Virus record (IMG/VR): IMGVR_UViG_3300011443_000005
Direction: 5' to 3' (one strand)
Source: a virus
Length of the DNA stretch: 49,419 bases
The notes below the pieces were generated by a model that was not told the origin of the DNA, did no database searches, and worked only from the letters and a program-made list of their open reading frames with translations. A program made the translations under genes and the position numbers. This document shows, in pieces, positions 3,359-49,419 of the stretch (the first letter of the stretch is position 1; every line of letters begins with the position of its first letter).

Positions 3359-3425
3359 CAGTCTGCTCCAGCAACAAGAAATCTATCTTCAGCCAGCATT
3401 CTACCAAGACTCCTCAGACTGTCAA

Positions 3426-5532: not shown

Positions 5533-7114
5533 AACTCATCTCCTCTGAATACTCCTCTGGAGGACCGGACAATTCCGGTGATTCTCCTGGAGAGAATGTC
5601 TGCTGCTGACCAGCACGTTGAACCTCCGGGATTTCCCCCAACACTCTACCCGAAGCAATCAATTCCGCCAGCAATTTCAAGTTGGGATCAGACCCACCAT
5701 GAGATTGAACCAAAGCGTGATACATATCCTCCGAAAGAACATCAGGAAGAAGTCCACCGTTATATGCATCCGCAATAGTTTGGGCGGGTGTAGGTCCAAA
5801 ATTTGCTTCAATGGCAAACTTTATCATCTGCTCTGACTTCTGTGCAGCGGCAAGAGCGGCAACAGTGGAAGAAACCAATTGCTCCAACCGTTGAACATTC
5901 TGCGGAGAAATTTGCTTACTCAAGGCCATTAGGTCTGGTGGGGGAGAGAACTCAATTTGTGTACCATCAGGAAGAGTACCTTTGATAATCGAAGTTGGGT
6001 CAACGGTAGTTCCCTTGGAAGCAGCAAGCAAAGTCCGAAGTGTCGGCAGGTAAGCGTAGTTCATCCAAGCTGCCATACCGGGAATGGTTGGGTCTATTGA
6101 CTTGATTGGTTTGTCTTTCTTCGAAAGGTTCTCAGGAGACAAAACGGTACCAAGGTTCCTTAACAAACCCGCTTGTTCGGTATTCTGTTTTCCCGCGAGA
6201 TTGAAAGTTCGCTCTATCAATTGCCAAGCATTGCCCTTAACTGGTTCTGTCCCATTAACCATTGCCACCGTAGCTTTGGCCATATCCAAATTACCACGGA
6301 TAAAATTGGTCAAGTCTCCCGGAGAAGTACCAGCGAGAGTGTGAAAAACATTCGCTGCCAATTTACCTGTTTGCTCCTGCTTATCCGCCAACTGCTGAGC
6401 ACGCTTAACTATTTGCTGTTTGTTCAAACCATACTTAGCAACACGCTTCATAATCTGGTGCTCAAACTCAAAAGCGGAGAGTCTTGAGAGTTGAACAGCA
6501 AAAGCAGTTGGATCAACACTTCCCTCATCATCCGTGAGCTTCATTGGAACTTCTGGATTGCTGGAGAGCGTATCATACTCAGAGCGAAGCGTCTCTGCTG
6601 CTTGATCCAAATATTTACTATCCTTTGTTCTTTTGGCCTGAACTAAGCTATTAAAAACATCTGTCTTAATCCTAAACTGTTTTTCATGAAGATTGGTTTG
6701 ACGAACGCCAATTTCTCGAACCGCCATTTCCCCCTCAGCACTAAGCAAGTATTCAGGGTCCGTGGCCACACCAGCATACAATTGAGACAAGTTGTTATCC
6801 GTCTCGTGAATAGACTTCATTACGTCATTCAGTTGCATACCAACTTTTTCAATCTGAAGCTGTTCTGCCTGTTCCTTCCGCCTCTGCTTCCGCTCTCCAA
6901 TCTTGGCAAAGACATCTCCCACTTGAGCACCGGCTTGAGAGATACCCTCCGCGAGAATGGCAGTACCGCCCATCGGCAGAGAGGGCAAACCGCCCTGTGT
7001 CTGAGAAATAGCAGCACCGGCTGAACCGGGTGCGGAGGCAGCAGTGGAAACCACACCGGGAATGGAACGCTGTCCGCCACCGATACGAGGAGTTTGTGTT
7101 TGTACTACCGCCAT
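5522..7114 (-). CDS. Virion protein (530 aa), candidate internal/ejection protein
   Basis: Long ORF that starts 1 nt after the upstream stop. Coiled-coil-like Gln/Glu/Lys-rich N-terminal half. Confidence 0.65.
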   Translation of the reverse strand: MAVVQTQTPRIGGGQRSIPGVVSTAASAPGSAGAAISQTQGGLPSLPMGGTAILAEGISQAGAQVGDVFAKIGERKQRRKEQAEQLQIEKVGMQLNDVMKSIHETDNNLSQLYAGVATDPEYLLSAEGEMAVREIGVRQTNLHEKQFRIKTDVFNSLVQAKRTKDSKYLDQAAETLRSEYDTLSSNPEVPMKLTDDEGSVDPTAFAVQLSRLSAFEFEHQIMKRVAKYGLNKQQIVKRAQQLADKQEQTGKLAANVFHTLAGTSPGDLTNFIRGNLDMAKATVAMVNGTEPVKGNAWQLIERTFNLAGKQNTEQAGLLRNLGTVLSPENLSKKDKPIKSIDPTIPGMAAWMNYAYLPTLRTLLAASKGTTVDPTSIIKGTLPDGTQIEFSPPPDLMALSKQISPQNVQRLEQLVSSTVAALAAAQKSEQMIKFAIEANFGPTPAQTIADAYNGGLLPDVLSEDMYHALVQSHGGSDPNLKLLAELIASGRVLGEIPEVQRAGQQQTFSPGESPELSGPPEEYSEEMSYAP

Positions 7115-7115
7115 A

Positions 7116-8474
7116 TCACCCCGCTGGAGTTAATGCTCCTTGAGCAGCACCACCTAAAATATTACCCGCAGCACCAATTCCCGCACCCCAGAGAGCATTA
7201 CGAGCTTGGCGGTTCTGAACCTCAATCTGTTGCTCGAACTGTCGATTCTGATCCCGCTGACCAGCTACCGCCATAATGGAAACATTCTGCGGATTCTCAA
7301 TCGCCATCAGATTTTGGAATTCCTGAGTCTTTACATTGTTATCAAAAGCCATGACATCCCAACCAATGTCAAAGAGGTCGGACATAATATCCGAAATTAC
7401 TAGGGTTGGGTAAACGGTATTGGATATCATGGTAAACAACGCCGAAGCACCATCAAGCTTAAACTGTTCAGTAAACTTACCAAGCTCGGTACGAGCAATA
7501 GTGAAGTTCTGAATAGTCTGTGCTCTTACCGTTGCTAGATTGGCAATAGTTTTTTCGGAATCAAGCAAAGCACCAATGCCTGTTTGGAGAGCACCACCTA
7601 CTTGTCCAAGAGCCTGTGCTGCTCCTTGGGTTGTAATATTGGCTAAATTGGTTTCAAGATTCGCTCGAAGCTCAATAGCTGATTCGTGTAGACTCCCGGC
7701 AGAGACAGCAATATTGCGAGCAGCATCACGCTGATACATGGAGCGGATAGCCTCTCGCTCTTCGGGAGCTACCGGACCAGAAGCTTCAAGAGCACGAACG
7801 TGTTCATTGTATGCCTGCTTTGAAGCTCCCTGAATACCAGTAGCAACAGACTCAATCCGATTACTAACGTCGATAGCAAAATTCTCTCGTACTTCTCCAG
7901 ACTGCTTTTGAATCTCAGAAAGAAGAGCAGTACCGGCATTAATGCCAGCACGAGTCATTAACATTGTCTGCTTCTGAATATCCTTCAAACCAGCAACAGA
8001 CTTGCCAATACCAGAGAGGGCAGAGGTTTGTGCTGAACCTAACATTTTATCCAGTTTGTTAAAGGTGCTATTCGCATCTCTCAAACCGGAAGCAAAACCC
8101 TTGGTTACTTCTTTCTGAGAATTGCTAAGTTCCAAAAGAGCGGCAAATTGATCTTCTCGTTCCTTTACCGCCTGAGTACCAATCTCAGGAAGACCAATCT
8201 GTAATGGGCCTCCGTTAGGACCACGAATCTGAAGCTGGGACTCCGTAGCCGAAGGACTTCGATACTCTGGAGCATTAGCTCGTAACGAGCCGGACAACCG
8301 TTGTCCTTCCCCACTACGAATGAGGTTGGTAATCATCGGGTTGTCCGCAAACTGCCGAAGTCCCGGAAGAAGAGCCAAAGGGCCGGTGAAAAAGGAACTG
8401 AGGAGACTGCTGATACCAGACGCAATACCAGCAAAACCCTGTGGGGCGGCTGGAGAATTGTATTGCTTCGCCAT
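7116..8474 (-). CDS. Virion protein (452 aa), Ala/Gly/Gln/Ser-rich, candidate internal/ejection protein
   Basis: ATG 8474..8472 overlaps the TAA of the upstream gene by 1 nt (TAATG). Confidence 0.65.
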   Translation of the reverse strand: MAKQYNSPAAPQGFAGIASGISSLLSSFFTGPLALLPGLRQFADNPMITNLIRSGEGQRLSGSLRANAPEYRSPSATESQLQIRGPNGGPLQIGLPEIGTQAVKEREDQFAALLELSNSQKEVTKGFASGLRDANSTFNKLDKMLGSAQTSALSGIGKSVAGLKDIQKQTMLMTRAGINAGTALLSEIQKQSGEVRENFAIDVSNRIESVATGIQGASKQAYNEHVRALEASGPVAPEEREAIRSMYQRDAARNIAVSAGSLHESAIELRANLETNLANITTQGAAQALGQVGGALQTGIGALLDSEKTIANLATVRAQTIQNFTIARTELGKFTEQFKLDGASALFTMISNTVYPTLVISDIMSDLFDIGWDVMAFDNNVKTQEFQNLMAIENPQNVSIMAVAGQRDQNRQFEQQIEVQNRQARNALWGAGIGAAGNILGGAAQGALTPAG

Positions 8475-23843: not shown

Positions 23844-24035
23844 TTGATCTACTGGTGTTGCTTCTGCGGACTACAGGCAAAGCAGGTTTTAATAAAAGTT
23901 TTTTAATGGGGGTGAGGCATTACACAACCAACTGCACTTCGCTCTAGGGGCCTGACACCTGGTTGATCTGGTGCTACGCACAGTGACATTGATATGGCAC
24001 ACGCTAGACCATGCTAAGCTGGTTGAATCTGGTGC
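23844..24035. repeat. Iteron-like direct repeats in the divergent control region
   Basis: CTGGTTGATCTGGTGC (23959..23974) and CTGGTTGAATCTGGTGC (24019..24035) differ by one inserted A. A looser copy, TTGATCTACTGGTG, is at 23844..23857. An AT-rich run lies at 23879..23906. Confidence 0.6.
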
Positions 24036-24196: not shown

Positions 24197-24226
24197 TTGA
24201 CAAGCTGGACGATGAGACACTACTCT
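24197..24226 (+). promoter_or_regulatory. Candidate rightward early promoter
   Basis: cTTGACAAg -35 box (same extended box as at 32382 and 32199) with a weak -10 (TACTCT, 18-nt spacer), about 60 nt upstream of the first plus gene. Confidence 0.3.
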
Positions 24227-29328: not shown

Positions 29329-29772
29329 ATGACACACACTGGAAAAGCCACCACGTTTATTCGATTCATTTACCCCAACGACGCGGAAGCGTTCAACGTT
29401 TGGGCTTGCGTCCAAGCTATTCGTCTAGCCCAGGTTTATAACCTCACTGTCCCGGATATTTTTCGGATGAACCAGTCAGCAAGATCACTTGCACACCTAG
29501 CCGCTAAACGAGAGTGGACAAGATTGCTGTTAGAAAATGTGAAGTACAAGCCGGAAAAGGGATTCATCCGAATTTGGGTAAGAGAGAAACCGATGGATAA
29601 ACCCCCAATGGGTTACAGAACTCTGGCTAGCAGACTACTGGAAAGATTTTCAGGTATGAGGATACGGGAAAAGAACCTTAAAGACACAAGAAAAATAGAT
29701 TGGCTAGCCGTAGCTAGACAAGCCAATGAAACAGATAAATTTTATGAGAAGCTTATCGGTCGAGAATCTTAA
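29329..29772 (+). CDS. Hypothetical protein (147 aa)
   Basis: ORF after the hairpin. Its stop overlaps the stop of the convergent gene 29769..30119 by 4 nt. Confidence 0.55.
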   Translation: MTHTGKATTFIRFIYPNDAEAFNVWACVQAIRLAQVYNLTVPDIFRMNQSARSLAHLAAKREWTRLLLENVKYKPEKGFIRIWVREKPMDKPPMGYRTLASRLLERFSGMRIREKNLKDTRKIDWLAVARQANETDKFYEKLIGRES

Positions 29773-30119
29773 GCTATCGGAATACCGGTTACCGTAAGCT
29801 TACCTGTTGTACAATCAGCAACACAATGGATGGAAAGAGTCTTAACAGCAAGTAGCCCTTCTCTGGAAACGTCAATCGTTTGATTGGCAGGCACAATAGT
29901 ATCAAAACTGGTTAGACTAGCTACAGCAGAAGGATTAACCTTAACCAGAACATTGCCAGCCGAATAATTGCTGACAAAACAAGGACTAACAGCCGTGAGA
30001 ATACCAGCAGAAGTACCCTCACTACGAAAGTCATACTCAACTACCGTACCAGCACCATGATTGCCACTGACCAAACGTGCAGGAAACGAAGATTTCATAA
30101 CCAGATGTCGCATACCCAC
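29769..30119 (-). CDS. Cassette gene 4: small beta-rich protein (116 aa)
   Basis: Last gene of the minus-strand cassette. Ser/Thr/Val-rich. Confidence 0.55.
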   Translation of the reverse strand: MGMRHLVMKSSFPARLVSGNHGAGTVVEYDFRSEGTSAGILTAVSPCFVSNYSAGNVLVKVNPSAVASLTSFDTIVPANQTIDVSREGLLAVKTLSIHCVADCTTGKLTVTGIPIA

Positions 30120-30136
30120 TCCCTTTCAACAAAACC

Positions 30137-30691
30137 TTAAACCTCGACCTCGAAATAAGCATACCACTTAATGACAACACGCTCATTCGTTGCCCAAGCA
30201 GAGGTAACGGTAGAGGTTTTTGTATAGCTGGTCAACGTCGTGGTAATGTCCTGAGAAATTTCGGAAATCAGAGTCTCCGTACCATCCACCGCACGATGAT
30301 ACATCCGGCCAATGATACGACGAATGGTTTCAAGATCACTCGCAGAATAATAAGCACCGAATTGCCAAGTAGCTGTTATCCCTGTGCAAACAACTTCATC
30401 CATTGCTCCCGCATTGGTAGCAAATTCCTCGATAAGACTTTCACAGGTAAGTACGGGGGTACAACTGGCAGTGTATTCAACATCATCATCATGCAATCCG
30501 CCAGTTTGAAGTATCCGATAACCGGAAATGTCAGATACATCATTACTCATCTGCAAAGTTTTGGTTGGTCCCGCAGCACTGCCAACAGTCATAGCACCAA
30601 TGTGTATAAGGGTTGGTCTAGACCGGGCATCGGACGGCAGGGTAACAATCGTGTCTGGAGCAGCTTCTATGTGTAGGTGTCCAGTTGCCAT
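30137..30691 (-). CDS. Cassette gene 3: hypothetical protein (184 aa)
   Basis: Starts 1 nt after the upstream stop. Thr/Ser-rich and beta-like. No motif recognised. Confidence 0.6.
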   Translation of the reverse strand: MATGHLHIEAAPDTIVTLPSDARSRPTLIHIGAMTVGSAAGPTKTLQMSNDVSDISGYRILQTGGLHDDDVEYTASCTPVLTCESLIEEFATNAGAMDEVVCTGITATWQFGAYYSASDLETIRRIIGRMYHRAVDGTETLISEISQDITTTLTSYTKTSTVTSAWATNERVVIKWYAYFEVEV

Positions 30692-31603
30692 TTACACGTC
30701 CATCACTTCATAAGCAACATGAAAGTCACCCGTTCTGGATGCAGTACCCACGGTAGCAGTAAGTTTCTTGTTTGTTGGTCCTACCCACTTACCCATCAAA
30801 GCACCACCACCACCAGGAGATTCGATTGAAGAAAAGATTGGATCAGAAGCAGTGTCAAATTGCAGAGTAAGTCTTGTGGTTCCCGCATTGCTACCAGCAG
30901 CCTTAATCATATAGCTACGTACTACAATCGCTTTGTTGGCTCCTGGAGCAGCTATTTGATCTACTGGTGTTGTTGTGGTTATTGTATCGTGTACGTACAG
31001 GGGATTTGCTGGGTTGGGATCAACCAATTGTTTGCCGTGTCTGTCAAAGACCGCATCCGTTCTATCCCCGGTAGCTACAGCGGTTGGTGCTGTTGCTGTT
31101 GCTACTGTTTTTCCACCAATCTTTATTGGGTTACCTGAATCCACCCCATCATGGGCCACATCACCCTGTACGGATACCGTAGCAGCAATGGATACGGGTT
31201 GTGTTGTTGCTCCCGTTGGGTCCGTTCGCACTTGACCATTCAAACCCAACCAAGCATCTACACGATCACCGTTAGCAACAGCAGTAGGTGTACCTGAAGA
31301 GGCTTTCCCACCAATTTTAATAGGACTACCTGTATCCGGTGCATCGTGTGCGGTGTCCCCTGTTACAGGTACAGGAGTAGTAAAAGTTACTGGTTGGGAG
31401 GTTGTACCTGTTGGGTCTGTCTTTAAGGCACCGTTAAGATTAAACCAAGCGTTAACTCTATCGCCGTTGCTTACCGCTGTTGGTGTACCTGATGCAGCTT
31501 TACCACCTATTTTGAGTGGGTTACCTGTATCCACATCATCATGCGGAACATTGCCCTGTATCATAGGCATGGAGTAACCCAAAGCTAGAGTATAACCCAA
31601 CAC
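30692..31603 (-). CDS. Cassette gene 2: repeat-containing fibre-like protein (303 aa)
   Basis: Contains 2.7 tandem 65-aa repeats (HD..D.GNPIKIGGK..SGTPTAV.NGDRV.AW..LNG...TDPTG.T.QPV). The fibre/receptor-binding call is inference. Confidence 0.65.
   Translation of the reverse strand: MLGYTLALGYSMPMIQGNVPHDDVDTGNPLKIGGKAASGTPTAVSNGDRVNAWFNLNGALKTDPTGTTSQPVTFTTPVPVTGDTAHDAPDTGSPIKIGGKASSGTPTAVANGDRVDAWLGLNGQVRTDPTGATTQPVSIAATVSVQGDVAHDGVDSGNPIKIGGKTVATATAPTAVATGDRTDAVFDRHGKQLVDPNPANPLYVHDTITTTTPVDQIAAPGANKAIVVRSYMIKAAGSNAGTTRLTLQFDTASDPIFSSIESPGGGGALMGKWVGPTNKKLTATVGTASRTGDFHVAYEVMDV
31010..31543 (-). repeat. Tandem 195-nt (65-codon) coding repeats, 2.7 copies
   Basis: Repeat units are residues 21-85, 86-150 and 151-198 of the 303-aa protein. 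The similarity is also visible at DNA level. Confidence 0.8.
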
Positions 31604-32004
31604 TATTTATACTCCACACCAAAGGCAGTAAAGGTTAGATCAGCTAGGTTCGCGGTGAAGACAACCAGTTCATGTCTAGGATACAAACTCAAACCGCTAA
31701 TAAACATTGGGTTACCTGGGTCTACCGGTTGATCAAACAAAAAGACTTGAGCACTAGCTTGATCTCCTGAGTCATTAGCTATTGTTCCCATTTTGAAGGT
31801 TCTTCTTACGGAACCAATGTTGCAGACCAGGATTAAACCTATTTCGATGGTTTGGTTTACTTGAGCAAGAATGAAGGAATACCAGTTTGCAGTAGGAACA
31901 CGAAGAGCAGTCGCATTAGCGGAAGAAAGAGCACCGACAGTGCCAGACTGCCCTACCGAACTTGATCCCGGAATTCCACCACCACCAGCCATGCAGGAAT
32001 TCAA
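31603..32004 (-). CDS. Cassette gene 1: hypothetical protein (133 aa; 129 aa if ATG 31992)
   Basis: First ORF downstream of the leftward promoter at 32170..32199. No clear SD for either the TTG 32004 or ATG 31992 start. Confidence 0.5.
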   Translation of the reverse strand: MNSCMAGGGGIPGSSSVGQSGTVGALSSANATALRVPTANWYSFILAQVNQTIEIGLILVCNIGSVRRTFKMGTIANDSGDQASAQVFLFDQPVDPGNPMFISGLSLYPRHELVVFTANLADLTFTAFGVEYK

Positions 32005-32061
32005 ACAGGTTTTGGTTGGGAGTCAAGTTTAGGCGTAGGGGTTGGCTCCTCCCCGCCTCTT

Positions 32062-32080
32062 GGTTTCCCGCAGGGAAACC
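32062..32080 (-). other. 8-bp hairpin in the cassette leader (ggtttccc gca gggaaacc)
   Basis: Perfect inverted repeat within the leader of about 160 nt predicted for the cassette. Confidence 0.45.
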
Positions 32081-32169
32081 TCTTATAGATATAACAACAA
32101 AAACCCCACCCTCGTAAAACACGCAGGTGGAGAAAAAATCACCCATACACCCGATGATGTACGAGGGGG

Positions 32170-32199
32170 GTTATAGGGGGGAGGAAAGAATTTTGTCAA
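32170..32199 (-). promoter_or_regulatory. Sigma70-type promoter facing the cassette
   Basis: Minus strand reads cTTGACAaa - 18 nt - TATAAC (-35 at 32199..32194, -10 at 32175..32170). Confidence 0.5.
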
Positions 32200-32210
32200 G
32201 AGGAAGTACT

Positions 32211-32228
32211 TTGTGAATCTTTTCACAA
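32211..32228. promoter_or_regulatory. Operator 1: perfect palindrome TTGTGA-atcttt-TCACAA (CRP-family consensus core TGTGA-N6-TCACA)
   Basis: Read directly. Its centre is about 23 bp upstream of the centre of the leftward -35 box. Confidence 0.7.
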
Positions 32229-32321
32229 TCTTTCCTGCTGGATGACCCCGAAAACCACGATTAGTAGGGAAAAGATCGAGAAAAAGCCTCTCGTCTTCCG
32301 GCGATGAATACCAGCAAAAGA

Positions 32322-32339
32322 TTGTGAAAATTGTCACAA
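32322..32339. promoter_or_regulatory. Operator 2: perfect palindrome TTGTGA-aaattg-TCACAA
   Basis: Read directly. Its half-sites are identical to operator 1. It lies 111 bp from operator 1 and about 54 bp upstream of the rightward -35 box. Confidence 0.7.
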
Positions 32340-32381
32340 AGCCCAGAGGGTAAAATAATCTAAAAAAATCTAAAAGAGTTG

Positions 32382-32409
32382 TTGACAAGATTAAGAAGCT
32401 TGGCAGAAT
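32382..32409 (+). promoter_or_regulatory. Sigma70-type promoter for the resumed plus arm (possibly leaderless)
   Basis: gTTGACAag - 16 nt - CAGAAT. ATG 32416 begins only 7 nt after the -10 and has no SD. Confidence 0.4.
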
Positions 32410-32415
32410 ACCAGC

Positions 32416-32631
32416 ATGTTAGCACAAGCAGTCAATGTGCAGTACCGATGTGACACCTGTAAGCAAATTACAGATACTTGGATAGGTATCCGAGTAACGG
32501 GTGATCTTTTTCATCGGATTTGTGCAGATTGCTTTTTCAAAGAGGAAAACGATGGCAGCGAAGAAAGCAAAGGGCAAAAGCCCAAAGCAGCCGGGATCAA
32601 CGAACGGGTTCAAACTGGTAAACAAGGATGA
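32416..32631 (+). CDS. Small zinc-ribbon protein (71 aa), family member
   Basis: YRCDTCKQITDTWIGIRVT...ICADCF matches YTCITCGKNKETMLGIRVT...CSMECSEAF of 46258..46491. Confidence 0.55.
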   Translation: MLAQAVNVQYRCDTCKQITDTWIGIRVTGDLFHRICADCFFKEENDGSEESKGQKPKAAGINERVQTGKQG

Positions 32632-32869
32632 GGTATCCTTTACCCAGCGGTCTCGCGGGGGTAGATGGAAGCCCTTGATCCAAGCCGCAATTGAAAACCC
32701 GGAGCAGGCTATCCTCATCCCATTGGAGGGAGATGAAGAAGAGCAGAAGGCGTCATACAAAAACTTTTCGCAGGGCATTTACCACCAGGCAAAAGCACTT
32801 AACGTATCTGTGTCGGTTGGACGAACCGATGACGGCGAGACTATGGTCGTCTGTCTGCGAAATGAATAG
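32552..32869 (+). CDS. Hypothetical basic protein (105 aa from ATG 32552)
   Basis: AGAGGA SD before ATG 32552 (MAAKKAKGKSPKQ...). The track ORF starts earlier at 32501. It overlaps the previous gene by 80 nt. Confidence 0.5.
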   Translation: MAAKKAKGKSPKQPGSTNGFKLVNKDEVSFTQRSRGGRWKPLIQAAIENPEQAILIPLEGDEEEQKASYKNFSQGIYHQAKALNVSVSVGRTDDGETMVVCLRNE

Positions 32870-32883
32870 GTTTAGTAGCTTAC

Positions 32884-32955
32884 GACTGCTTACACCCTTA
32901 CCTCCTCACGGGGATTCAGGTTTTTGCGATGGCTTGAGTCCGGGTGTAAGCAGTC
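32884..32955 (+). other. 72-nt structured RNA element (14-bp outer stem plus 9-bp inner stem)
   Basis: gactgcttacaccc / gggtgtaagcagtc are perfect. The inner ggattcagg / cttgagtcc stem needs two G-U pairs, which are possible only on the plus transcript. Confidence 0.5.
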
Positions 32956-33081
32956 TCTAAAATGGTGGACCTCCGCAACCGTTGCGGTAACGGGCTAACT
33001 GTCAATCACGGGGCAGGATGTCAAAGTTTAACTCACACACCCTCCACAGACTAGTGTGACACGAACGGAGAGCGGTTGCCG

Positions 33082-34100: not shown

Positions 34101-34387
34101 AAATGTTAATAGCGGAACATAGTATCGCTTGGTATCTCACGCAACCAGACGGTGCAAGAGTGGTGATTCTAGAATTACCGACAAGACCAAAAAATCGTAC
34201 TGATGTTTCCGCCAAACTACCCCAACAGTTTTTTGATGACATCCACAGAGCAATGACAAGGACGTTAGGCTATGCTGAAGAACTCAAAGCAATCAAAGAC
34301 GCTATCGCAGACTGCGAAGACACAACTTCCATCGACCTTGGAAAAGGCTACACTTGTACCTGCAAGTGTCATAAACCTATCGGGTAA
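34094..34387 (+). CDS. Hypothetical protein (97 aa)
   Basis: 7-nt overlap with the nuclease stop. C-terminal CTCKCH. Confidence 0.5.
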   Translation: MLEMLIAEHSIAWYLTQPDGARVVILELPTRPKNRTDVSAKLPQQFFDDIHRAMTRTLGYAEELKAIKDAIADCEDTTSIDLGKGYTCTCKCHKPIG

Positions 34388-36512
34388 ACCCACAATCCTT
34401 TGCTTCGGTGAGACTCCAGGAATAGAGGATGTCCAGGAGGGACAAGCATTCGCTGGACGAGCAGGGAAGCTGCTTCGGAAACTCATCACCCTGCACCTGC
34501 CCCATTGCCGTGTTGTCCTCGACAACGTGTGTCCCGAAGTCCTGGCCGGGGGACATGGCAAACCCAACGCGGATATTCTCAAGAAGTACAAAGCCTACAG
34601 AGAAGAATCCGTAACCACTTGGCAACCCTCTGTGATTGTCCTGGTTGGGGCTTACGCGATGAACACAGCGGGTCTGCGGGGTACTGCTGGAATTGTTCGC
34701 CGAAATGCAACCACCGTACTTTACCACGGCAGACCGGCGGTGCTTTCTGTTCATCCAGCCTATGTGCTCCGCAATCCAGCGGAAATCAAACTACTTCGTA
34801 GAGTTTTTGAAATCGTGGAGGCGGAATTAAGAGGCGGAAAGGAAGTCCAAGCTCCCCGATCACGCAATGGGCTGACCTTGAATATTTCAGCAAGTTTAGA
34901 CCTGGAAACAGAAGGACTGAACCCAAGGGGGGGACGAATACTTACTGCTGCAATGAGTAGTAAGAAGCAAACAACTTGGATAGCTGCACCAACACTAGAT
35001 ACTATACAACTTTCTCCTAAACCCGTTATCTTCCACAACGGCAAGTTTGATATGGCTTGGTTGCAGACACACGGTTTTCAATTGCCCGCAAGTGTGGAAG
35101 ATACCCTTATCATAGCTTGGCTAATTGACGAGAATGATAAGAAAGACCTAGGTACACTTGCACAACGATACTTAGGTGTTCCCGCGTGGTGGCTGGACAT
35201 CGATCTGAAACACACAACTGAATTACCTACAGAAGTATTAGGTAAGTATAATGCTCTTGATGCACACTATACTTACCAACTGCGGAATAAACTTTGGCCG
35301 GAACTTACCAAACAACAACAACAGCTTTGTACTGACGTTCTCTTCCCCATGACAAAGCTTTTGGCAGAGATGGAATGCCGGGGGTTCAAAGTTGACGGCA
35401 CAGTATTTGAGAAAATTTGTACTAACAACCAGAAGTTAATAAAGCAGCAGGAAAAGAAACTCCGATCCAAGTACGGAGAAGAAATTAACTTTCGTTCAAC
35501 TACCGATTTGAAAGAGTTGGTCTATGGCAAACTCGATTATAAAGTGGGTGGACTAACCAAGGCCAAACAACCCGCTGTTGACGCTGACACATTGAGAAAG
35601 ATTTCTCCCAAACTCGCGGACTTGGCCGATTACCGTTGGCAATTGTGGTTTGAGTCCAATGTAGCTAAAGGTTGGGCGAAGCGAATTACCTCTCAAGGTT
35701 TTTTGCACACGAATTACAACTTTGGTCATGTTGTTACGGGTCGGTTAAGTTCGTCCAATCCGAACATGCAAAATGTGGATCGGGATGGGGTTCAACGTCT
35801 TTGCCTTGTTTCTCGGTTTCCTCGTGGGAAGATTATTCAATACGATTACAAAGCCCACGAGTACCGGATTAAGGCTGCCGAAGCAGGAGAGACAAAGCTT
35901 CTTAAACAACTATCCGATTCGTCCTTTGACCCACACGAGGAAACACGAACGTTGCTCCGTACCAAGTATGAGATTGTTGTAGATAGGCCGAGAGCAAAAA
36001 ATGTGAACTTCTCCGTAATCTACGGAATTAGCCCTCACGGTTTGTTCGGAAAGTATGAAATACCAATTAAAGATGGGCAGTTAATTATACCTGCTTGGTA
36101 TAAACTCTACCCAAGAATCAAGGCACACAATGATTTAATTCTGAAAAACTATGAAGAGAAACGAGAGGTTGAGTCGATATTTGGTTGGAAGAGAAGATTC
36201 AAACCTGTTGAGTTGGTAGATTTGGGAAGTCGCAAGTTTGATGCACACCAGCGGAATCAAGCATTGAACTTTGGAACACAGAACGCAGCAGTAGTGATCT
36301 GCTACATGGGAATGTTAGCACTTGATCGCTGGCTGACAAGACACCGAATGAAGAGTATCATTATCCACCAGATACACGACTCTGTTGTGGTAGACGCACA
36401 CCCGAAAGAAGTAAAGGCCCTGGAAAGAGAAGTTCCAGAAGTGTTGACAAATCTGAAACTACCAATGAGGATTCCTTTAGCTGTGGAGGCTAAAGTCGGG
36501 GACACCCTGTAG
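34272..36512 (+). CDS. polA: Family-A DNA polymerase with 3'-5' exonuclease and an N-terminal UDG-like (family 4/5-type) domain
   Basis: UDG motifs GETPGIED..G.AFAGRAGKLL and SVHPAYVLR. Exo motifs LDLETEGL, HNGKFD, YNALDAHY. Pol motifs DYKAHEYR, RAKNVNFSVIYG, IHQIHDSVVVD. The true start may be downstream of 34272 (116-nt overlap with the previous ORF). Confidence 0.9.
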   Translation: MLKNSKQSKTLSQTAKTQLPSTLEKATLVPASVINLSGKPTILCFGETPGIEDVQEGQAFAGRAGKLLRKLITLHLPHCRVVLDNVCPEVLAGGHGKPNADILKKYKAYREESVTTWQPSVIVLVGAYAMNTAGLRGTAGIVRRNATTVLYHGRPAVLSVHPAYVLRNPAEIKLLRRVFEIVEAELRGGKEVQAPRSRNGLTLNISASLDLETEGLNPRGGRILTAAMSSKKQTTWIAAPTLDTIQLSPKPVIFHNGKFDMAWLQTHGFQLPASVEDTLIIAWLIDENDKKDLGTLAQRYLGVPAWWLDIDLKHTTELPTEVLGKYNALDAHYTYQLRNKLWPELTKQQQQLCTDVLFPMTKLLAEMECRGFKVDGTVFEKICTNNQKLIKQQEKKLRSKYGEEINFRSTTDLKELVYGKLDYKVGGLTKAKQPAVDADTLRKISPKLADLADYRWQLWFESNVAKGWAKRITSQGFLHTNYNFGHVVTGRLSSSNPNMQNVDRDGVQRLCLVSRFPRGKIIQYDYKAHEYRIKAAEAGETKLLKQLSDSSFDPHEETRTLLRTKYEIVVDRPRAKNVNFSVIYGISPHGLFGKYEIPIKDGQLIIPAWYKLYPRIKAHNDLILKNYEEKREVESIFGWKRRFKPVELVDLGSRKFDAHQRNQALNFGTQNAAVVICYMGMLALDRWLTRHRMKSIIIHQIHDSVVVDAHPKEVKALEREVPEVLTNLKLPMRIPLAVEAKVGDTL

Positions 36513-39714: not shown

Positions 39715-40463
39715 AATACAAGAGTGACGGTGTTAGCTACATGCTGGATTGTCCTAGCTGTAAAGGCAAGGACAAGATGGAGGTACATCCAGATGGCAGG
39801 TACCATTGTCACAAATGTAAACGCGGAGGGAAAAAGAATACCAAGCTTGGATTGAGAGAGCAACAATTTACCCTCCGGTCTGTAAAGTTTCGACGAATTC
39901 CAGAAACACACGGACAATGGAAAAAGCTTGCTGCCGAAAGAGTTTCGGAGTTAGGAAGAGCGGAATACGAAAAACTCAACCCTATGAAGTGTGACCAGTT
40001 AGACTGTGTTTGGCACGTATTCTTTCCCTTCTATGAGGGGGGAACAATAATACAAGCTCAGGGGTATTTACCTGGGGGGTTGAAGAATTACAGGTATTGG
40101 AACCCCCCGCTTAATTGGTTTGTTCGCAGAAAGTCCGAATGTCTCTGGGGTACTCACTTGCTAAGCTACCCGATAAAGAGACTGGTGCTGGTGGAGGGTA
40201 TCTTTGACGCTTTGTGGGGAGATAACAGACTGGCCCTAATGGGTAGTTCCATCAGCAGATCACAGGTAGAATTGATTCGAGAACTACGACCAGAAAAAGT
40301 AGTAGTTATGCTGGACGGAGACGCTAGACTCAAAGCAGTCCAGATAGCAATGGTGCTGGATTTCACAAAGGTGGATGTGGCTTTCCTGCCGTGGGAGAAA
40401 GACCCAGACAATCTGAAAGGTGAGGGGGAAAAGTATATCGAAACTGCGGAGAGGTTCCGATGA
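39711..40463 (+). CDS. DNA primase (zinc-binding domain plus TOPRIM), 250 aa from ATG 39711
   Basis: CPSC-x17-CHKC zinc finger. TOPRIM LVEGIFDALW and MLDGDARLKA. The ATG is chosen because of the ATGA overlap; the track ORF starts at 39651. Confidence 0.75.
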   Translation: MKYKSDGVSYMLDCPSCKGKDKMEVHPDGRYHCHKCKRGGKKNTKLGLREQQFTLRSVKFRRIPETHGQWKKLAAERVSELGRAEYEKLNPMKCDQLDCVWHVFFPFYEGGTIIQAQGYLPGGLKNYRYWNPPLNWFVRRKSECLWGTHLLSYPIKRLVLVEGIFDALWGDNRLALMGSSISRSQVELIRELRPEKVVVMLDGDARLKAVQIAMVLDFTKVDVAFLPWEKDPDNLKGEGEKYIETAERFR

Positions 40464-40750
40464 GTATGGTCCTCAAAATTTTTAAGGCTATGCTCGGAGA
40501 GAAATTAAGGATCATCCGCAAAAGTCGTGGACTTAGTTTACGAGACTTGTCAAGAAGAACAGGAATAGACGAACCCCACTTAGCGAAGATAGAAGGTGGG
40601 AAAGTTGACATTCGAATGAGCACTTTTGTAAAGATCATGCACAAGCTTGGGGGGATACACGGACCCACTTGGAGCTATCTTATGGTAGATGCGGAGAAAA
40701 CCTTGGCGAACACTTTACTGCGAGGGGGAGAGCATGATAATCGGAATTGA
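40460..40750 (+). CDS. XRE-family helix-turn-helix transcriptional regulator (96 aa)
   Basis: LRIIRKSRGLSLRDLSRRTGIDEPHLAKIEGGK is a typical HTH_3 pattern. ATGA overlap with the primase. Confidence 0.7.
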   Translation: MSMVLKIFKAMLGEKLRIIRKSRGLSLRDLSRRTGIDEPHLAKIEGGKVDIRMSTFVKIMHKLGGIHGPTWSYLMVDAEKTLANTLLRGGEHDNRN

Positions 40751-46827: not shown

Positions 46828-49419
46828 GCAATGCAGGATCAATACCAATTAATTGCTCCGCTTCGGATGAAAGAGCCGCTTGTACCATCTGAGCAAACAT
46901 TGGGCGTTGAGCTTCAGGAAGAGCTTCAAAGACTCGTGCGAGCTTTGGAACATTTTGGCGAAGACGGATTGCTTGAATGTCCTGGGGCTTTACCTGGATG
47001 TCCAGACCTGGATACCGCTGTTTGAATTCCCCACGAATGGAAACAGCTTTCTTAATATCGTTGTCGTCAAAGGCTGCTTCCAGATACATTCTCTTATAGC
47101 CACGAATCTGTTCAGCTTGCTTGGTAATGTAATATTGAAGTTCCTGCTCCTTCTTAATATCTGTGTTGCCGCCAGGAAGAAGACCCAAAGCCTCTGCATA
47201 TAACTGTGTGGGGGTAACGTAACCAATCAATGCACCCTTGGGATCACGCATAGCAATCCGTCCATCCGGTGCTGGCTGTGTATAATCCGCGTACTTCTTG
47301 GCAACTAACGGAGCAACAGAGGGAGCAAAGGCGGTAGCTGCTCTAGAAGCAGCAACACCACCAGGAACCAGCAGAGGTAATTGCCGCTTGAAAGACCCCT
47401 CTTCCCCAAAGAGAGCAGCAGCAGGAAGAGACAATGCTGGGGGAACAAATGGGAAGGGATAGAATGGAGCATCCTTGTATGGGTACGGCAATGCTCCAGG
47501 CATGAGAGAGCCGGAAAGATCAAGCCCAAGGGACTTCCCACCCTCGTAAGTTACTGCTGAAGCAAGTAAAGCTCTACCCATTGTCCCTAGATTGCGTCCC
47601 AAGACGTTCTGAGCACCCGAACCTAATTCCTGGGCTGGACCCATGAGGAAGCCGAGATAACGCATTGGGAAGCGTAGGAACTGGCTTGTGAGTGGCCCTG
47701 CGTTGGCCAGGAGGGCAGGCATATTCTCTGGGCCGGTGAGGAACTGTGTCGCTTCCACGACACGTCTCGCTATCGGGACAGTTTCAGCAACACTTAAGCC
47801 CTCACGAGCACCACGAGCGAGAGTACCTTCGAACGCGGAAAGCCGGTTGAAAGCCTCTGTTGCTTGAAACAGACTCATCATACCCGCTTTAATTCGATCC
47901 ACCTTGGTAGGCTTATGTCCCAACAAAGCAGACTGCTTCCATGCGTTACCAAGAATGGAACCAACTGATCCACCAGCTAATGCTTCTTCTGTTAGTGGTG
48001 TTACTGCTAGTCCTTCTTTAACAAACTCAGGAAAACTACGTAGCAATGCTTGATCGTGAGTTAGCCCTGAACCTCTAGACTTAAAATACTCTGGAGCTTT
48101 CTTTAGGACATTACCCATTCCCTCCAAAGTTCCCCTAAGACCTATGGTAGGAACAGTGGTTAACACCGATTGCGTTAGGTTATAAAACGCACTAACCGGA
48201 TTCGCACCCAAAGCTCCCAGGTAAAGATGAGAAGCAATCTTTCCATTGAGATTCTTGAGATTAAATATTCCCCTGTCTTCTTTCAATCGCTCCGTAAACC
48301 AGCCTTTAAGCTCAGTGGGTAGCAATTTACCAATAGGGCCAGATTCAATCTGTTGTATGGCCCCATACTTTAAGTCTGACCAATGTGCGGAAGCAATGAA
48401 TTGTTTATATGTTTGCCTACCAAGAGCAACAGGCACAAAGGTGTCCCGAAGCATTTTGGCACGGATGATGTTGTGTGGTTTAGCAGAAGACTCTAATGCT
48501 TCGGCAGCTTGAAGAATGTCTCGTCCATGCCCCTTAACTGTCCAACCAAAAGCTCTAGCGTTGGAGTGGAGATATGCGGAAGAGACAGTATTGAAGTCTA
48601 AACTATACGGAAGAACCTTTGAAGAGGATTGGAGCCTGCTTGTAATTCTTGAAGGCAATGTAGGATCAAGCAGGTATTCTTTGATACGTTCCAAGTCTTT
48701 TGGATCAGGGAGCATCTTCCCACGTTTGAGAAGGGCATGAGGACTACTTACCGCACCAGCAGCGGAATAAGCCAGTCTGCCCGAAGCTGCTTCCGATGGT
48801 GGAACACCCCGCATCAGGAATTGAGCCTCATCACGAATATCAGAGAGATACCCACGAGAAACCATTTCAGGAAAATAGTGTTCCTGCTTTCTAATCAGAT
48901 TGGTGGAGAAGCCTGCATTGTTAAGTTGTTCAAGCACCTGTCGTTTAATGGCGGATTGCTTGGCAAGGACTTTTCTAACAAGCTCCGGTCTGGTACGGGA
49001 AGGTAGTTTTGCCAATTCTTCAAATTGGCGAAGGCCAATCCTTGCTTCCTGAGTAGCCTGAAGTAAGGCTCGTTGTTCCACAGAACCATAAACTTTTGAC
49101 CAGACATTATTGAAAGTGCTCCTTGCATCTTTTGTAAGAGTATCAAATGCTGGACCCAATTGAATAGGTTTGGTGATTTTCCCCTCCCAACCCTTTAGAC
49201 GAGCAATAAGAAGAGTTCCCAGCTTCTTATTAAATTCCTGGCCGGAAGCAGCTTCATACTTTGTAATGGCAGAGCCTAGAGCGACAGCGTGTTCTGTCCA
49301 GAAACCCTCAACTTCCCGAAGCAGACTTTTATAGGTTGTGGGCAGATCACTCTTTCCAGCAGGTAAAGCATGATAGATGTCGTCAAAGCTACCAAAAACA
49401 GAAGTACGAAGCATTCCAA
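46727..49419 (-). CDS. Large virion-associated protein (895 aa from ATG 49414; about 993 aa if it starts at GTG 412 across the junction)
   Basis: Longest late-arm ORF. The central region is rich in Gly/Ala/Leu hydrophobic segments. The ejection, core or tape-measure-like role is inference from size and position. Confidence 0.7.
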   Translation of the reverse strand, partial: GMLRTSVFGSFDDIYHALPAGKSDLPTTYKSLLREVEGFWTEHAVALGSAITKYEAASGQEFNKKLGTLLIARLKGWEGKITKPIQLGPAFDTLTKDARSTFNNVWSKVYGSVEQRALLQATQEARIGLRQFEELAKLPSRTRPELVRKVLAKQSAIKRQVLEQLNNAGFSTNLIRKQEHYFPEMVSRGYLSDIRDEAQFLMRGVPPSEAASGRLAYSAAGAVSSPHALLKRGKMLPDPKDLERIKEYLLDPTLPSRITSRLQSSSKVLPYSLDFNTVSSAYLHSNARAFGWTVKGHGRDILQAAEALESSAKPHNIIRAKMLRDTFVPVALGRQTYKQFIASAHWSDLKYGAIQQIESGPIGKLLPTELKGWFTERLKEDRGIFNLKNLNGKIASHLYLGALGANPVSAFYNLTQSVLTTVPTIGLRGTLEGMGNVLKKAPEYFKSRGSGLTHDQALLRSFPEFVKEGLAVTPLTEEALAGGSVGSILGNAWKQSALLGHKPTKVDRIKAGMMSLFQATEAFNRLSAFEGTLARGAREGLSVAETVPIARRVVEATQFLTGPENMPALLANAGPLTSQFLRFPMRYLGFLMGPAQELGSGAQNVLGRNLGTMGRALLASAVTYEGGKSLGLDLSGSLMPGALPYPYKDAPFYPFPFVPPALSLPAAALFGEEGSFKRQLPLLVPGGVAASRAATAFAPSVAPLVAKKYADYTQPAPDGRIAMRDPKGALIGYVTPTQLYAEALGLLPGGNTDIKKEQELQYYITKQAEQIRGYKRMYLEAAFDDNDIKKAVSIRGEFKQRYPGLDIQVKPQDIQAIRLRQNVPKLARVFEALPEAQRPMFAQMVQAALSSEAEQLIGIDPALLTQPKRLPEYYQTWMKPETSGIEQQLQQQFGSR
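49297..49419. repeat. Terminal direct repeat, copy B (identical to 1..123)
   Basis: See copy A. Confidence 0.95.

Follow-up and report, generated by a model that had tools for sequence, protein, structure and literature searches.

The intergenic region between two divergent transcription units of a 49.3-kb phage genome contains two palindromic boxes, which are real and non-random. The boxes are read here as operators for a dimeric energy regulator of the host, most likely a Rex-type NADH/NAD+ sensor, and a probability of around 0.5 is assigned to this reading. That the binder is, in the wider sense, a global regulator of the host is considerably more probable. A host regulator is favoured because the same extended box precedes energy-metabolism operons in cellular contigs of the Verrucomicrobiota type, and it is very unlikely that a phage-specific operator equals the box of cellular energy operons, flanks included, by coincidence. 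Rex is preferred because the boxes fit the Rex consensus, their inner A/T positions are Rex-like and the set of genes preceded by the box parallels the Rex regulon of Streptomyces. By means of the two boxes, the phage would probably make both its replication genes and a set of tail-fibre-like genes dependent on the redox or energy state of its host. Phage regulation in Planctomycetota and Verrucomicrobiota is essentially unknown, and the phage described here has almost no relatives. If a redox or energy regulator of the host binds the boxes, replication and a receptor-binding-like cassette would be timed to the metabolic state of the host, and the regulator would be one not previously described in such a role in phages; a literature search found no description of redox-responsive Rex boxes in phages.

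The box pair in the phage genome

The window, i.e., the whole stretch of 49,419 nucleotides that was analysed, is a complete phage genome with a circle of 49,296 bp. Its ends share an exact terminal redundancy of 123 nt (1-123 = 49297-49419), which corresponds to a circular or circularly permuted assembly, and the two window ends are bridged by a minus-strand gene of around 993 amino acids. Contigs of 49.3-49.4 kb of the phage were assembled from several samples, and the intergenic region with the boxes is 100% identical in every one of them. An integrase was not found among the phage genes. No nucleotide match was found among known phages, and the nearest DNA polymerase in a set of 5.8 billion proteins shares 34% identity and stems from one relative, whose genome contains neither the cassette located next to the boxes nor the boxes themselves. 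IMG/VR contained no relatives of the phage and no copy of the extended box described below; diverged phage relatives carrying the box region were not found.

The boxes sit in a gap of 560 bp without called genes. Box 1 (TTGTGAATCTTTTCACAA) is located at 32211-32228, is a perfect palindrome and matches the pattern TTGTGAA-N4-TTCACAA at 14 of 14 positions. Box 2 (TTGTGAAAATTGTCACAA) follows at 32322-32339, 111 bp further on when counted from start to start; it is a perfect 6+6 palindrome and matches the same pattern at 13 of 14 positions. An earlier, sequence-only reading of this DNA had described two TTGTGA-N6-TCACAA palindromes with a TGTGA-N6-TCACA core at these positions and had reported no other full copy in the window, which could be confirmed; it had also considered the pair incompatible with chance. 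In the circular phage genome, boxes 1 and 2 are the only perfect matches to TTGTGA-N6-TCACAA, and the window contains no match beyond the two boxes to TGTGA-N6-TCACA with up to one mismatch or to TTGTGAA-N4-TTCACAA with up to two mismatches. The rarity of the pair was assessed by a look-elsewhere test, which accepted any perfect 6-Nx-6 palindrome (x = 0-12) of any half-site that is repeated within 300 bp. The box pair is the sole case in the phage genome, and any such pair was present in only 2 of 400 simulated first-order Markov genomes (~0.5%; probability ~0.005). An apparent depletion of TGTGA disappeared under a higher-order expectation and was rejected, and LexA-like AGAAC-N4-GTTCT boxes are absent from the window.

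The similarity of the boxes extends into their flanks: 22 of 25 positions are identical between 32209-32233 and the reverse complement of 32317-32341. The pair is thus inverted, with a centre at ~32275 and the AAAGA sides turned toward each other, and both boxes have the extended motif AAAGA-TTGTGAAAA-NNN-TCACAA-AG in common. Extended box 1 (32209-32233; AAAGATTGTGAAAAGATTCACAAAG when read on the minus strand) points with its AG side toward the leftward promoter, and extended box 2 (32317-32341, plus strand; AAAGATTGTGAAAATTGTCACAAAG) points with its AG side toward the rightward promoter. A small hairpin or palindrome, CGAGAAAAAGCCTCTCG, is located near the centre of the pair at 32277-32293. 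In addition, the exact 11-mer GAATACCAGCA occurs twice at a distance of 100 bp, a repeat of borderline significance; the first copy (32306-32316) lies directly upstream of box 2, and the second one (32406-32416) covers the rightward -10 hexamer and the A of ATG 32416.

Promoters and genes on either side of the boxes

The sequence-only reading had also placed divergent promoters around the boxes, i.e., TTGACA-18-TATAAC leftward and TTGACA-16-CAGAAT rightward, and both are present. The leftward promoter candidate (32170-32199, minus strand) consists of TTGACA at 32199-32194, an 18-nt spacer and TATAAC at 32175-32170, a -10 hexamer in which the conserved final T is missing. The edge of box 1 lies 11 bp upstream of this -35 hexamer, thereby placing the centre of the box at ~-56.5 from the predicted start. 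An alternative leftward promoter (32190-32217, minus strand), composed of TTCACA within box 1, a 16-nt spacer and TGaCAAAAT, has the same style as the rightward promoter. The latter (32382-32409, plus strand) comprises TTGACA at 32382-32387, a 16-nt spacer and the extended -10 element TGgCAGAAT. Its -10 hexamer at 32404-32409 is followed by ACCAGC, a gap of 6 nt, and then by ATG 32416, the A of which is the predicted start. Box 2 is located 42 bp upstream of the rightward TTGACA, with its centre at ~-85.5 from the predicted start, and an alternative rightward promoter (32331-32359, plus strand) can be drawn from TTGTCA within box 2, a 17-nt spacer and AATAAT. With regard to these predicted starts, the boxes overlap weaker promoter-like matches only and not the TTGACA hexamers. 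A further promoter-like site in the style of the rightward promoter (TTGACA, 16-17 nt, TGG-nAGAAT) is found at 3420 on the minus strand.

ATG 32416 opens an ORF of 71 codons with a CxxC...CxxC pattern (32416-32631, plus strand), which was not called by the gene callers and for which a leaderless start is proposed. Its own frame has the best score of all six frames, at the level of the other early genes. In L027, the only relative, two tandem, near-identical promoters each carry TGGTACAAT 10 nt before an ATG, a placement that suggests leaderless or near-leaderless early mRNAs; such mRNAs are therefore plausible for the phage group. The 71-codon ORF is probably a real gene on a leaderless mRNA, and the frame score together with the L027 promoters supports the leaderless start at ATG 32416 that had been proposed from the sequence. 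The promoters of L027, located at 6930-7200, read ACTTGATCCTATTrGCTG...TGGTACAATACC, and each of them precedes a small paralogous ORF.

To the left of the boxes, a cassette of four genes coding for proteins of 129, 303, 184 and 114 amino acids is encoded on the minus strand (29769-31992). Its codon usage is similar to that of the late genes. Other phages encode homologs of the 303-aa repeat protein within their tail or virion modules; the homolog follows the tape measure and Dit genes in L079 and the capsid gene in L080. The structure model of the 303-aa protein reached a pLDDT of 65. The cassette is read as a putative set of virion or tail-fibre-like genes with its own promoter; paralogs of the cassette genes are absent from the main structural operon. 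A proposed kinship of the 129-aa protein with the 130-aa neighbour in L079 was rejected, as there is no similarity between the two. The leader of the cassette has a length of ~170-190 nt within 31993-32183 on the minus strand and contains a perfect hairpin, GGTTTCCC-GCA-GGGAAACC, at 32062-32080. The C-rich 5' end of the leader pairs with a GGGGAGGAG stretch, and the fold is mildly better than that of shuffled sequences (z = -1.7). Rfam and tRNA scans yielded no match.

To the right, the replication arm opens, as far as called genes are concerned, with an orphan gene for a protein of 105 amino acids (32552-32869, plus strand), which is preceded by a Shine-Dalgarno sequence. No homologs of the 105-aa protein were found, and its structure model (pLDDT 66) has no significant fold match in the PDB. 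The arm continues with a PD-(D/E)XK nuclease, a UDG-PolA fusion and a gp32-like protein, and further on with DnaB, a primase-like protein, an XRE protein, CsrA and Cpn10. The DNA polymerase A (34272-36512) carries an N-terminal domain of the uracil-DNA glycosylase family, and the resulting architecture of UDG, 3'-5' exonuclease and PolA is common to the nearest relatives. The CsrA and Cpn10 (GroES) homologs are encoded by the phage at 43448-43651 and 43964-44272, respectively. A gene-free stretch of 200 nt (32868-33075) separates the 105-aa gene from a gene for a 74-aa protein. Its plus-strand RNA folds unusually well (z = -3.2; 200 shuffled versions all folded less well) and forms a long GCTTACACCC...GGGTGTAAGC stem, which has no match in Rfam; two TTGACA hexamers are located on the minus strand of the same stretch (33000, 33019). 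The other large intergenic region of the phage (23421-24542) contains a direct repeat, CTGGTTGA(A)TCTGGTGC, with copies 60 bp apart at 23959-23974 and 24019-24035, as well as a promoter-like site, TTGACAAG, at 24197, heading the first block of plus-strand genes.

The extended box in cellular contigs and the candidate binders

Metagenome contigs were scanned with AAAGATTGTGAAAANNNTCACAAAG, which represents the 22 positions common to both phage boxes, and 12 loci were found. One of them, an AT-rich match within a coding region, is taken as a chance hit. The other 11 are located in contigs with a GC content of 53-60%, in which an A/T-rich 25-mer is very unlikely to occur by chance; seven occupy intergenic DNA ahead of a gene, and the remaining four are situated at the end of a repeated IS-like element. 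At the two positions before TCACAA, which were left unconstrained in the search, TT is present in 11 of 11 GC-rich loci. Therefore, the cellular motif is TTGTGAAAnnTTTCACAA, the full Rex consensus, although part of this motif was dictated by the search pattern, and independent agreement is confined to positions 11-12 and the outer flanks. The box is found between obg and a complete atpBEFHAGDC operon (L107, L111, L119, L120), before a CarboxypepD_reg-like gene that is followed by ctaA (COX15) and ctaB (UbiA) (L113/L121, L115), before a gene for an ABC ATPase (L110/L124, L116) and ~15 nt before a polyprenyl synthase gene (L117).

Both the ABC ATPase and the cta promoters have TTGnCn exactly 5 nt behind the box and TAnnnT a further 16-17 nt on; in the atp promoter, TTGnCn is again found 5 nt after the box, and a clear -10 hexamer was not found. 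The centre of the box in the cellular promoters lies at ~-48.5 from the predicted start. The orientation is constant, with the AG side of the cellular box always facing the gene, and the phage boxes likewise turn their AG sides toward their own outward promoters. A comparison of orthologous promoter pairs (L107 vs L111, L110 vs L116, L113 vs L115) revealed that the box was kept while the flanks diverged. The spacing to the -35 hexamer differs, as it amounts to 11 bp at phage box 1 in contrast to 5 bp in the cellular promoters, and the mode of action proposed for the phage promoters is therefore tentative. In the contigs L108, L112, L114 and L118, the repeated IS-like element carries the extended box ~20 nt from one end, and ~100 nt around the box are alike at 97-98% identity; a mobile element may be spreading the site of the regulator.

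Two lines of evidence point to a host of the PVC group. AtpD and NusG of the 313-kb atp contig cluster at an identity of at least 90% with proteins labelled Verrucomicrobiota or Chthoniobacteraceae, and the best matches of the phage Cpn10 among 185,579 species genomes belong almost all to Planctomycetota, with identities of up to 54%. The shared extended box is an independent clue to the host, and the atp, heme A and quinone genes give an initial outline of what may be a global regulon in Verrucomicrobiota. Planctomycetota and Verrucomicrobiota may encode Rex. A gene for Rex, a protein with a winged helix and a Rossmann domain (PF06971/COG2344), was not found in the fetched flanks of the box-carrying contigs, and a literature search on Rex in Planctomycetes, Verrucomicrobia and anammox bacteria retrieved nothing relevant.

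The resemblance of the boxes to Rex operators concerns sequence, arrangement and gene set. The Rex operator consensus of S. aureus is TTGTGAA-N4-TTCACAA with a W4 spacer (PMC2883068), the same consensus is found in S. pneumoniae (PMC6018154), and the consensus of Streptomyces is TTGTGAANNNNTTCACAA (PMC5355995). Rex operators are also known from B. subtilis. The phage boxes share the 18-bp palindrome and its A/T-rich spacer, and of the 8 positions by which Rex sites are defined (inner A/T, outer T/A) they match 7. Rex sites are often common to divergently transcribed genes (PMC2883068), and the phage boxes are also located between divergent genes. The Rex protein of Streptomyces avermitilis acts via its motif as a direct repressor of atpIBEFHAGDC and of other respiratory operons (PMC5355995); correspondingly, the host-type motif precedes atp and respiratory-cofactor operons, and an examination of the box-carrying loci for a Rex-type regulon revealed the extended box before atpBEFHAGDC, ctaA-ctaB and the polyprenyl synthase gene, within a sample of only four promoter types. 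Rex is, however, a repressor whose sites usually lie over the promoter or downstream of it (PMC5355995), whereas the phage boxes leave the strongest promoter hexamers, the TTGACA sequences, uncovered and are placed 11 and 42 bp upstream of them. The fixed position of the cellular box just upstream of the -35 hexamer, which would suit an activator equally well, also counts against Rex. In contrast to the known operators, the boxes described here are located in a phage genome, the putative PVC host has no characterised Rex, and binding and a response to NADH are predicted.

Under the Rex-type reading, each box would point toward one of the two divergent phage promoters in the orientation found in host promoters. 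The leftward promoter would serve the tail-fibre-like cassette, and the rightward promoter would serve the replication arm, starting with the small leaderless gene. When NAD+ dominates, the regulator would occupy both boxes, thereby damping both promoters. The accumulation of NADH would lead to the release of the regulator, and both phage units would be switched on together with the atp and heme A operons of the host. For this scheme, we infer the identity of the binder, its encoding by the host, the direction of the regulation and the start sites. Sites for host regulators are known from other phages and include the Spo0A boxes of phi29, the NtcA sites in cyanophage promoters and the LexA boxes of temperate phages. 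The boxes would resemble these systems in that sites for a host regulator are placed at key promoters and the phage programme follows the state of the host; they would differ from them in the regulator, in the signal, which is redox or energy rather than sporulation, nitrogen or DNA damage, and in the host, which belongs to an uncultured group.

The strongest alternative, though a doubtful one, is a host regulator of the CRP/FNR family, which in its ligand-bound form would activate or modulate both divergent promoters. Like the sites of CRP, GlxR and Vfr, both boxes contain the exact TGTGA-N6-TCACA core and occupy the region between divergent promoters, and both TTGACA -35 hexamers have their box on the upstream side, in the fashion of an activator. 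The cellular box has an activator-like position as well, since it is fixed just upstream of weak -35 hexamers (TTGCCC, TTGCGC). GlxR of Corynebacterium, a member of the CRP family, reportedly also controls atp and cytochrome oxidase genes. Beyond the 10-bp core, however, box 1 agrees with AAATGTGATCTAGATCACATTT at one extra position, a consensus that is that of E. coli and may not be that of the host. The flank and inner positions of the phage boxes are Rex-like and not E. coli CRP-like, and the match to 7 of the 8 Rex-defining positions argues against CRP. The geometry differs, too: the class I and class II sites of E. coli CRP are centred at -41.5, -61.5, -71.5, -82.5 and -92.5, whereas the centres of the phage boxes (~-56.5 and -85.5) and of the host box (-48.5), all counted from predicted starts, miss these positions. 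The sequence-only reading had proposed that a CRP-family regulator couples the region to host physiology. The coupling to a host regulator gains support from the presence of the box at cellular energy operons, but the CRP label is probably incorrect or at least unproven, as only the 10-bp core fits, the 22-mer flanks and the class I/II positions are unmatched, and Rex fits better.

It is unlikely that the boxes are operators for a protein of the phage itself, such as the XRE-type HTH protein (40460-40750), the 71-aa zinc-ribbon protein or the 105-aa protein. Such a binder would switch both units during infection, and it might mimic the host regulator and act on the energy operons of the host. 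Paired palindromes between divergent promoters are a classic operator layout in phages, an XRE protein is encoded, and the first genes after the rightward promoter are small and basic. Furthermore, the centre of box 1 near -56 resembles the position of the site of the P2 zinc-finger activator Ogr, and the identical boxes that form arrays in other viral contigs (see below) could be operators of phage repressors. However, the same extended box stands before housekeeping energy operons in cellular contigs without phage context, and it corresponds to the consensus of a cellular regulator across phyla. Unlike the operators of a phage repressor or Cro, the boxes are therefore not phage-specific. The XRE gene, which had been named earlier as an alternative source of the binder and is now disfavoured, is located at a distance of 8 kb and lacks its own box. 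The adjacent small genes are poor candidates as well: the 71-aa ORF has no match to Ogr_Delta or any other Pfam family, and the 105-aa protein has neither homologs nor a recognisable DNA-binding fold. Sequence searches of the PDB with the XRE protein, the 71-aa ORF and the 105-aa protein gave nothing informative, and the array-carrying viral contigs have no protein in common with the phage. A CRP or Rex homolog was not found in the phage, neither by Pfam and PHROGs scans and precomputed Pfam matches nor by tblastn with approximate Rex and CRP query sequences.

A non-regulatory origin of the boxes, i.e., as inverted-repeat ends of a mobile element, as an inverted duplication, as part of a replication origin or as an RNA hairpin, is very improbable: 25-nt arms with 88% complementarity do flank 83 bp, the cumulative GC-skew minimum lies nearby (~26-32 kb), and the IS-like repeat in the GC-rich contigs has the same box near one end, but no target-site duplication was seen around the pair and the phage has no further copy, each arm is itself a perfect palindrome matching a regulator consensus, the box occurs singly and at a fixed promoter position in the host-type contigs, the turn of the GC skew coincides with the change in the direction of transcription, and both boxes would be untranscribed if the TTGACA promoters downstream of them are real.

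Boxes in other viral contigs

Boxes of the same type are also present in viral contigs of IMG/VR. Two perfect TTGTGA-N6-TCACAA boxes 80-110 bp apart were found in 7 contigs and two perfect TTGTGAA-N4-TTCACAA boxes 10-40 bp apart in 19 contigs, which is far above a rough chance estimate for 24-28 specified bases. The box-carrying viral contigs span a GC content of 32 to 65%. Arrays of boxes are found in non-coding regions or regions with small ORFs of four unrelated, large viral contigs with 32-43% GC: L084 (2470-3842), L086 (3353-5187) and L088 (471-772) contain 6-9 perfect 18-mers each, and L087 (1025-1664) contains 4 perfect 18-mers within 12 core sites. Some of the boxes in these arrays are located directly downstream of TTGACA promoters.

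The fetched stretches of L083-L089 have no protein in common with each other or with the phage, and no Rex or CRP homolog was found in the fetched stretches of 24 viral contigs. The arrays fit a conserved host factor, and they could also be operators of phage repressors. It is possible, though tentative, that unrelated phage lineages carry Rex-type boxes as single sites, pairs or arrays of up to about a dozen, thereby reading or titrating the NADH/NAD+ sensor of the host. The arrays suggest that the phenomenon could be general, and if this were true, the phage of the PVC group would be one case of a general and so far undescribed link between phage expression and the redox state of host respiration. 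In L083 (2230-2400) and L087 (1025-1500), TTGTGA boxes and AGAAC-N4-GTTCT palindromes are arranged in alternation, the latter being similar to the LexA (Cheo) boxes of Gram-positive bacteria; two regulators may converge on one region in these two contigs.
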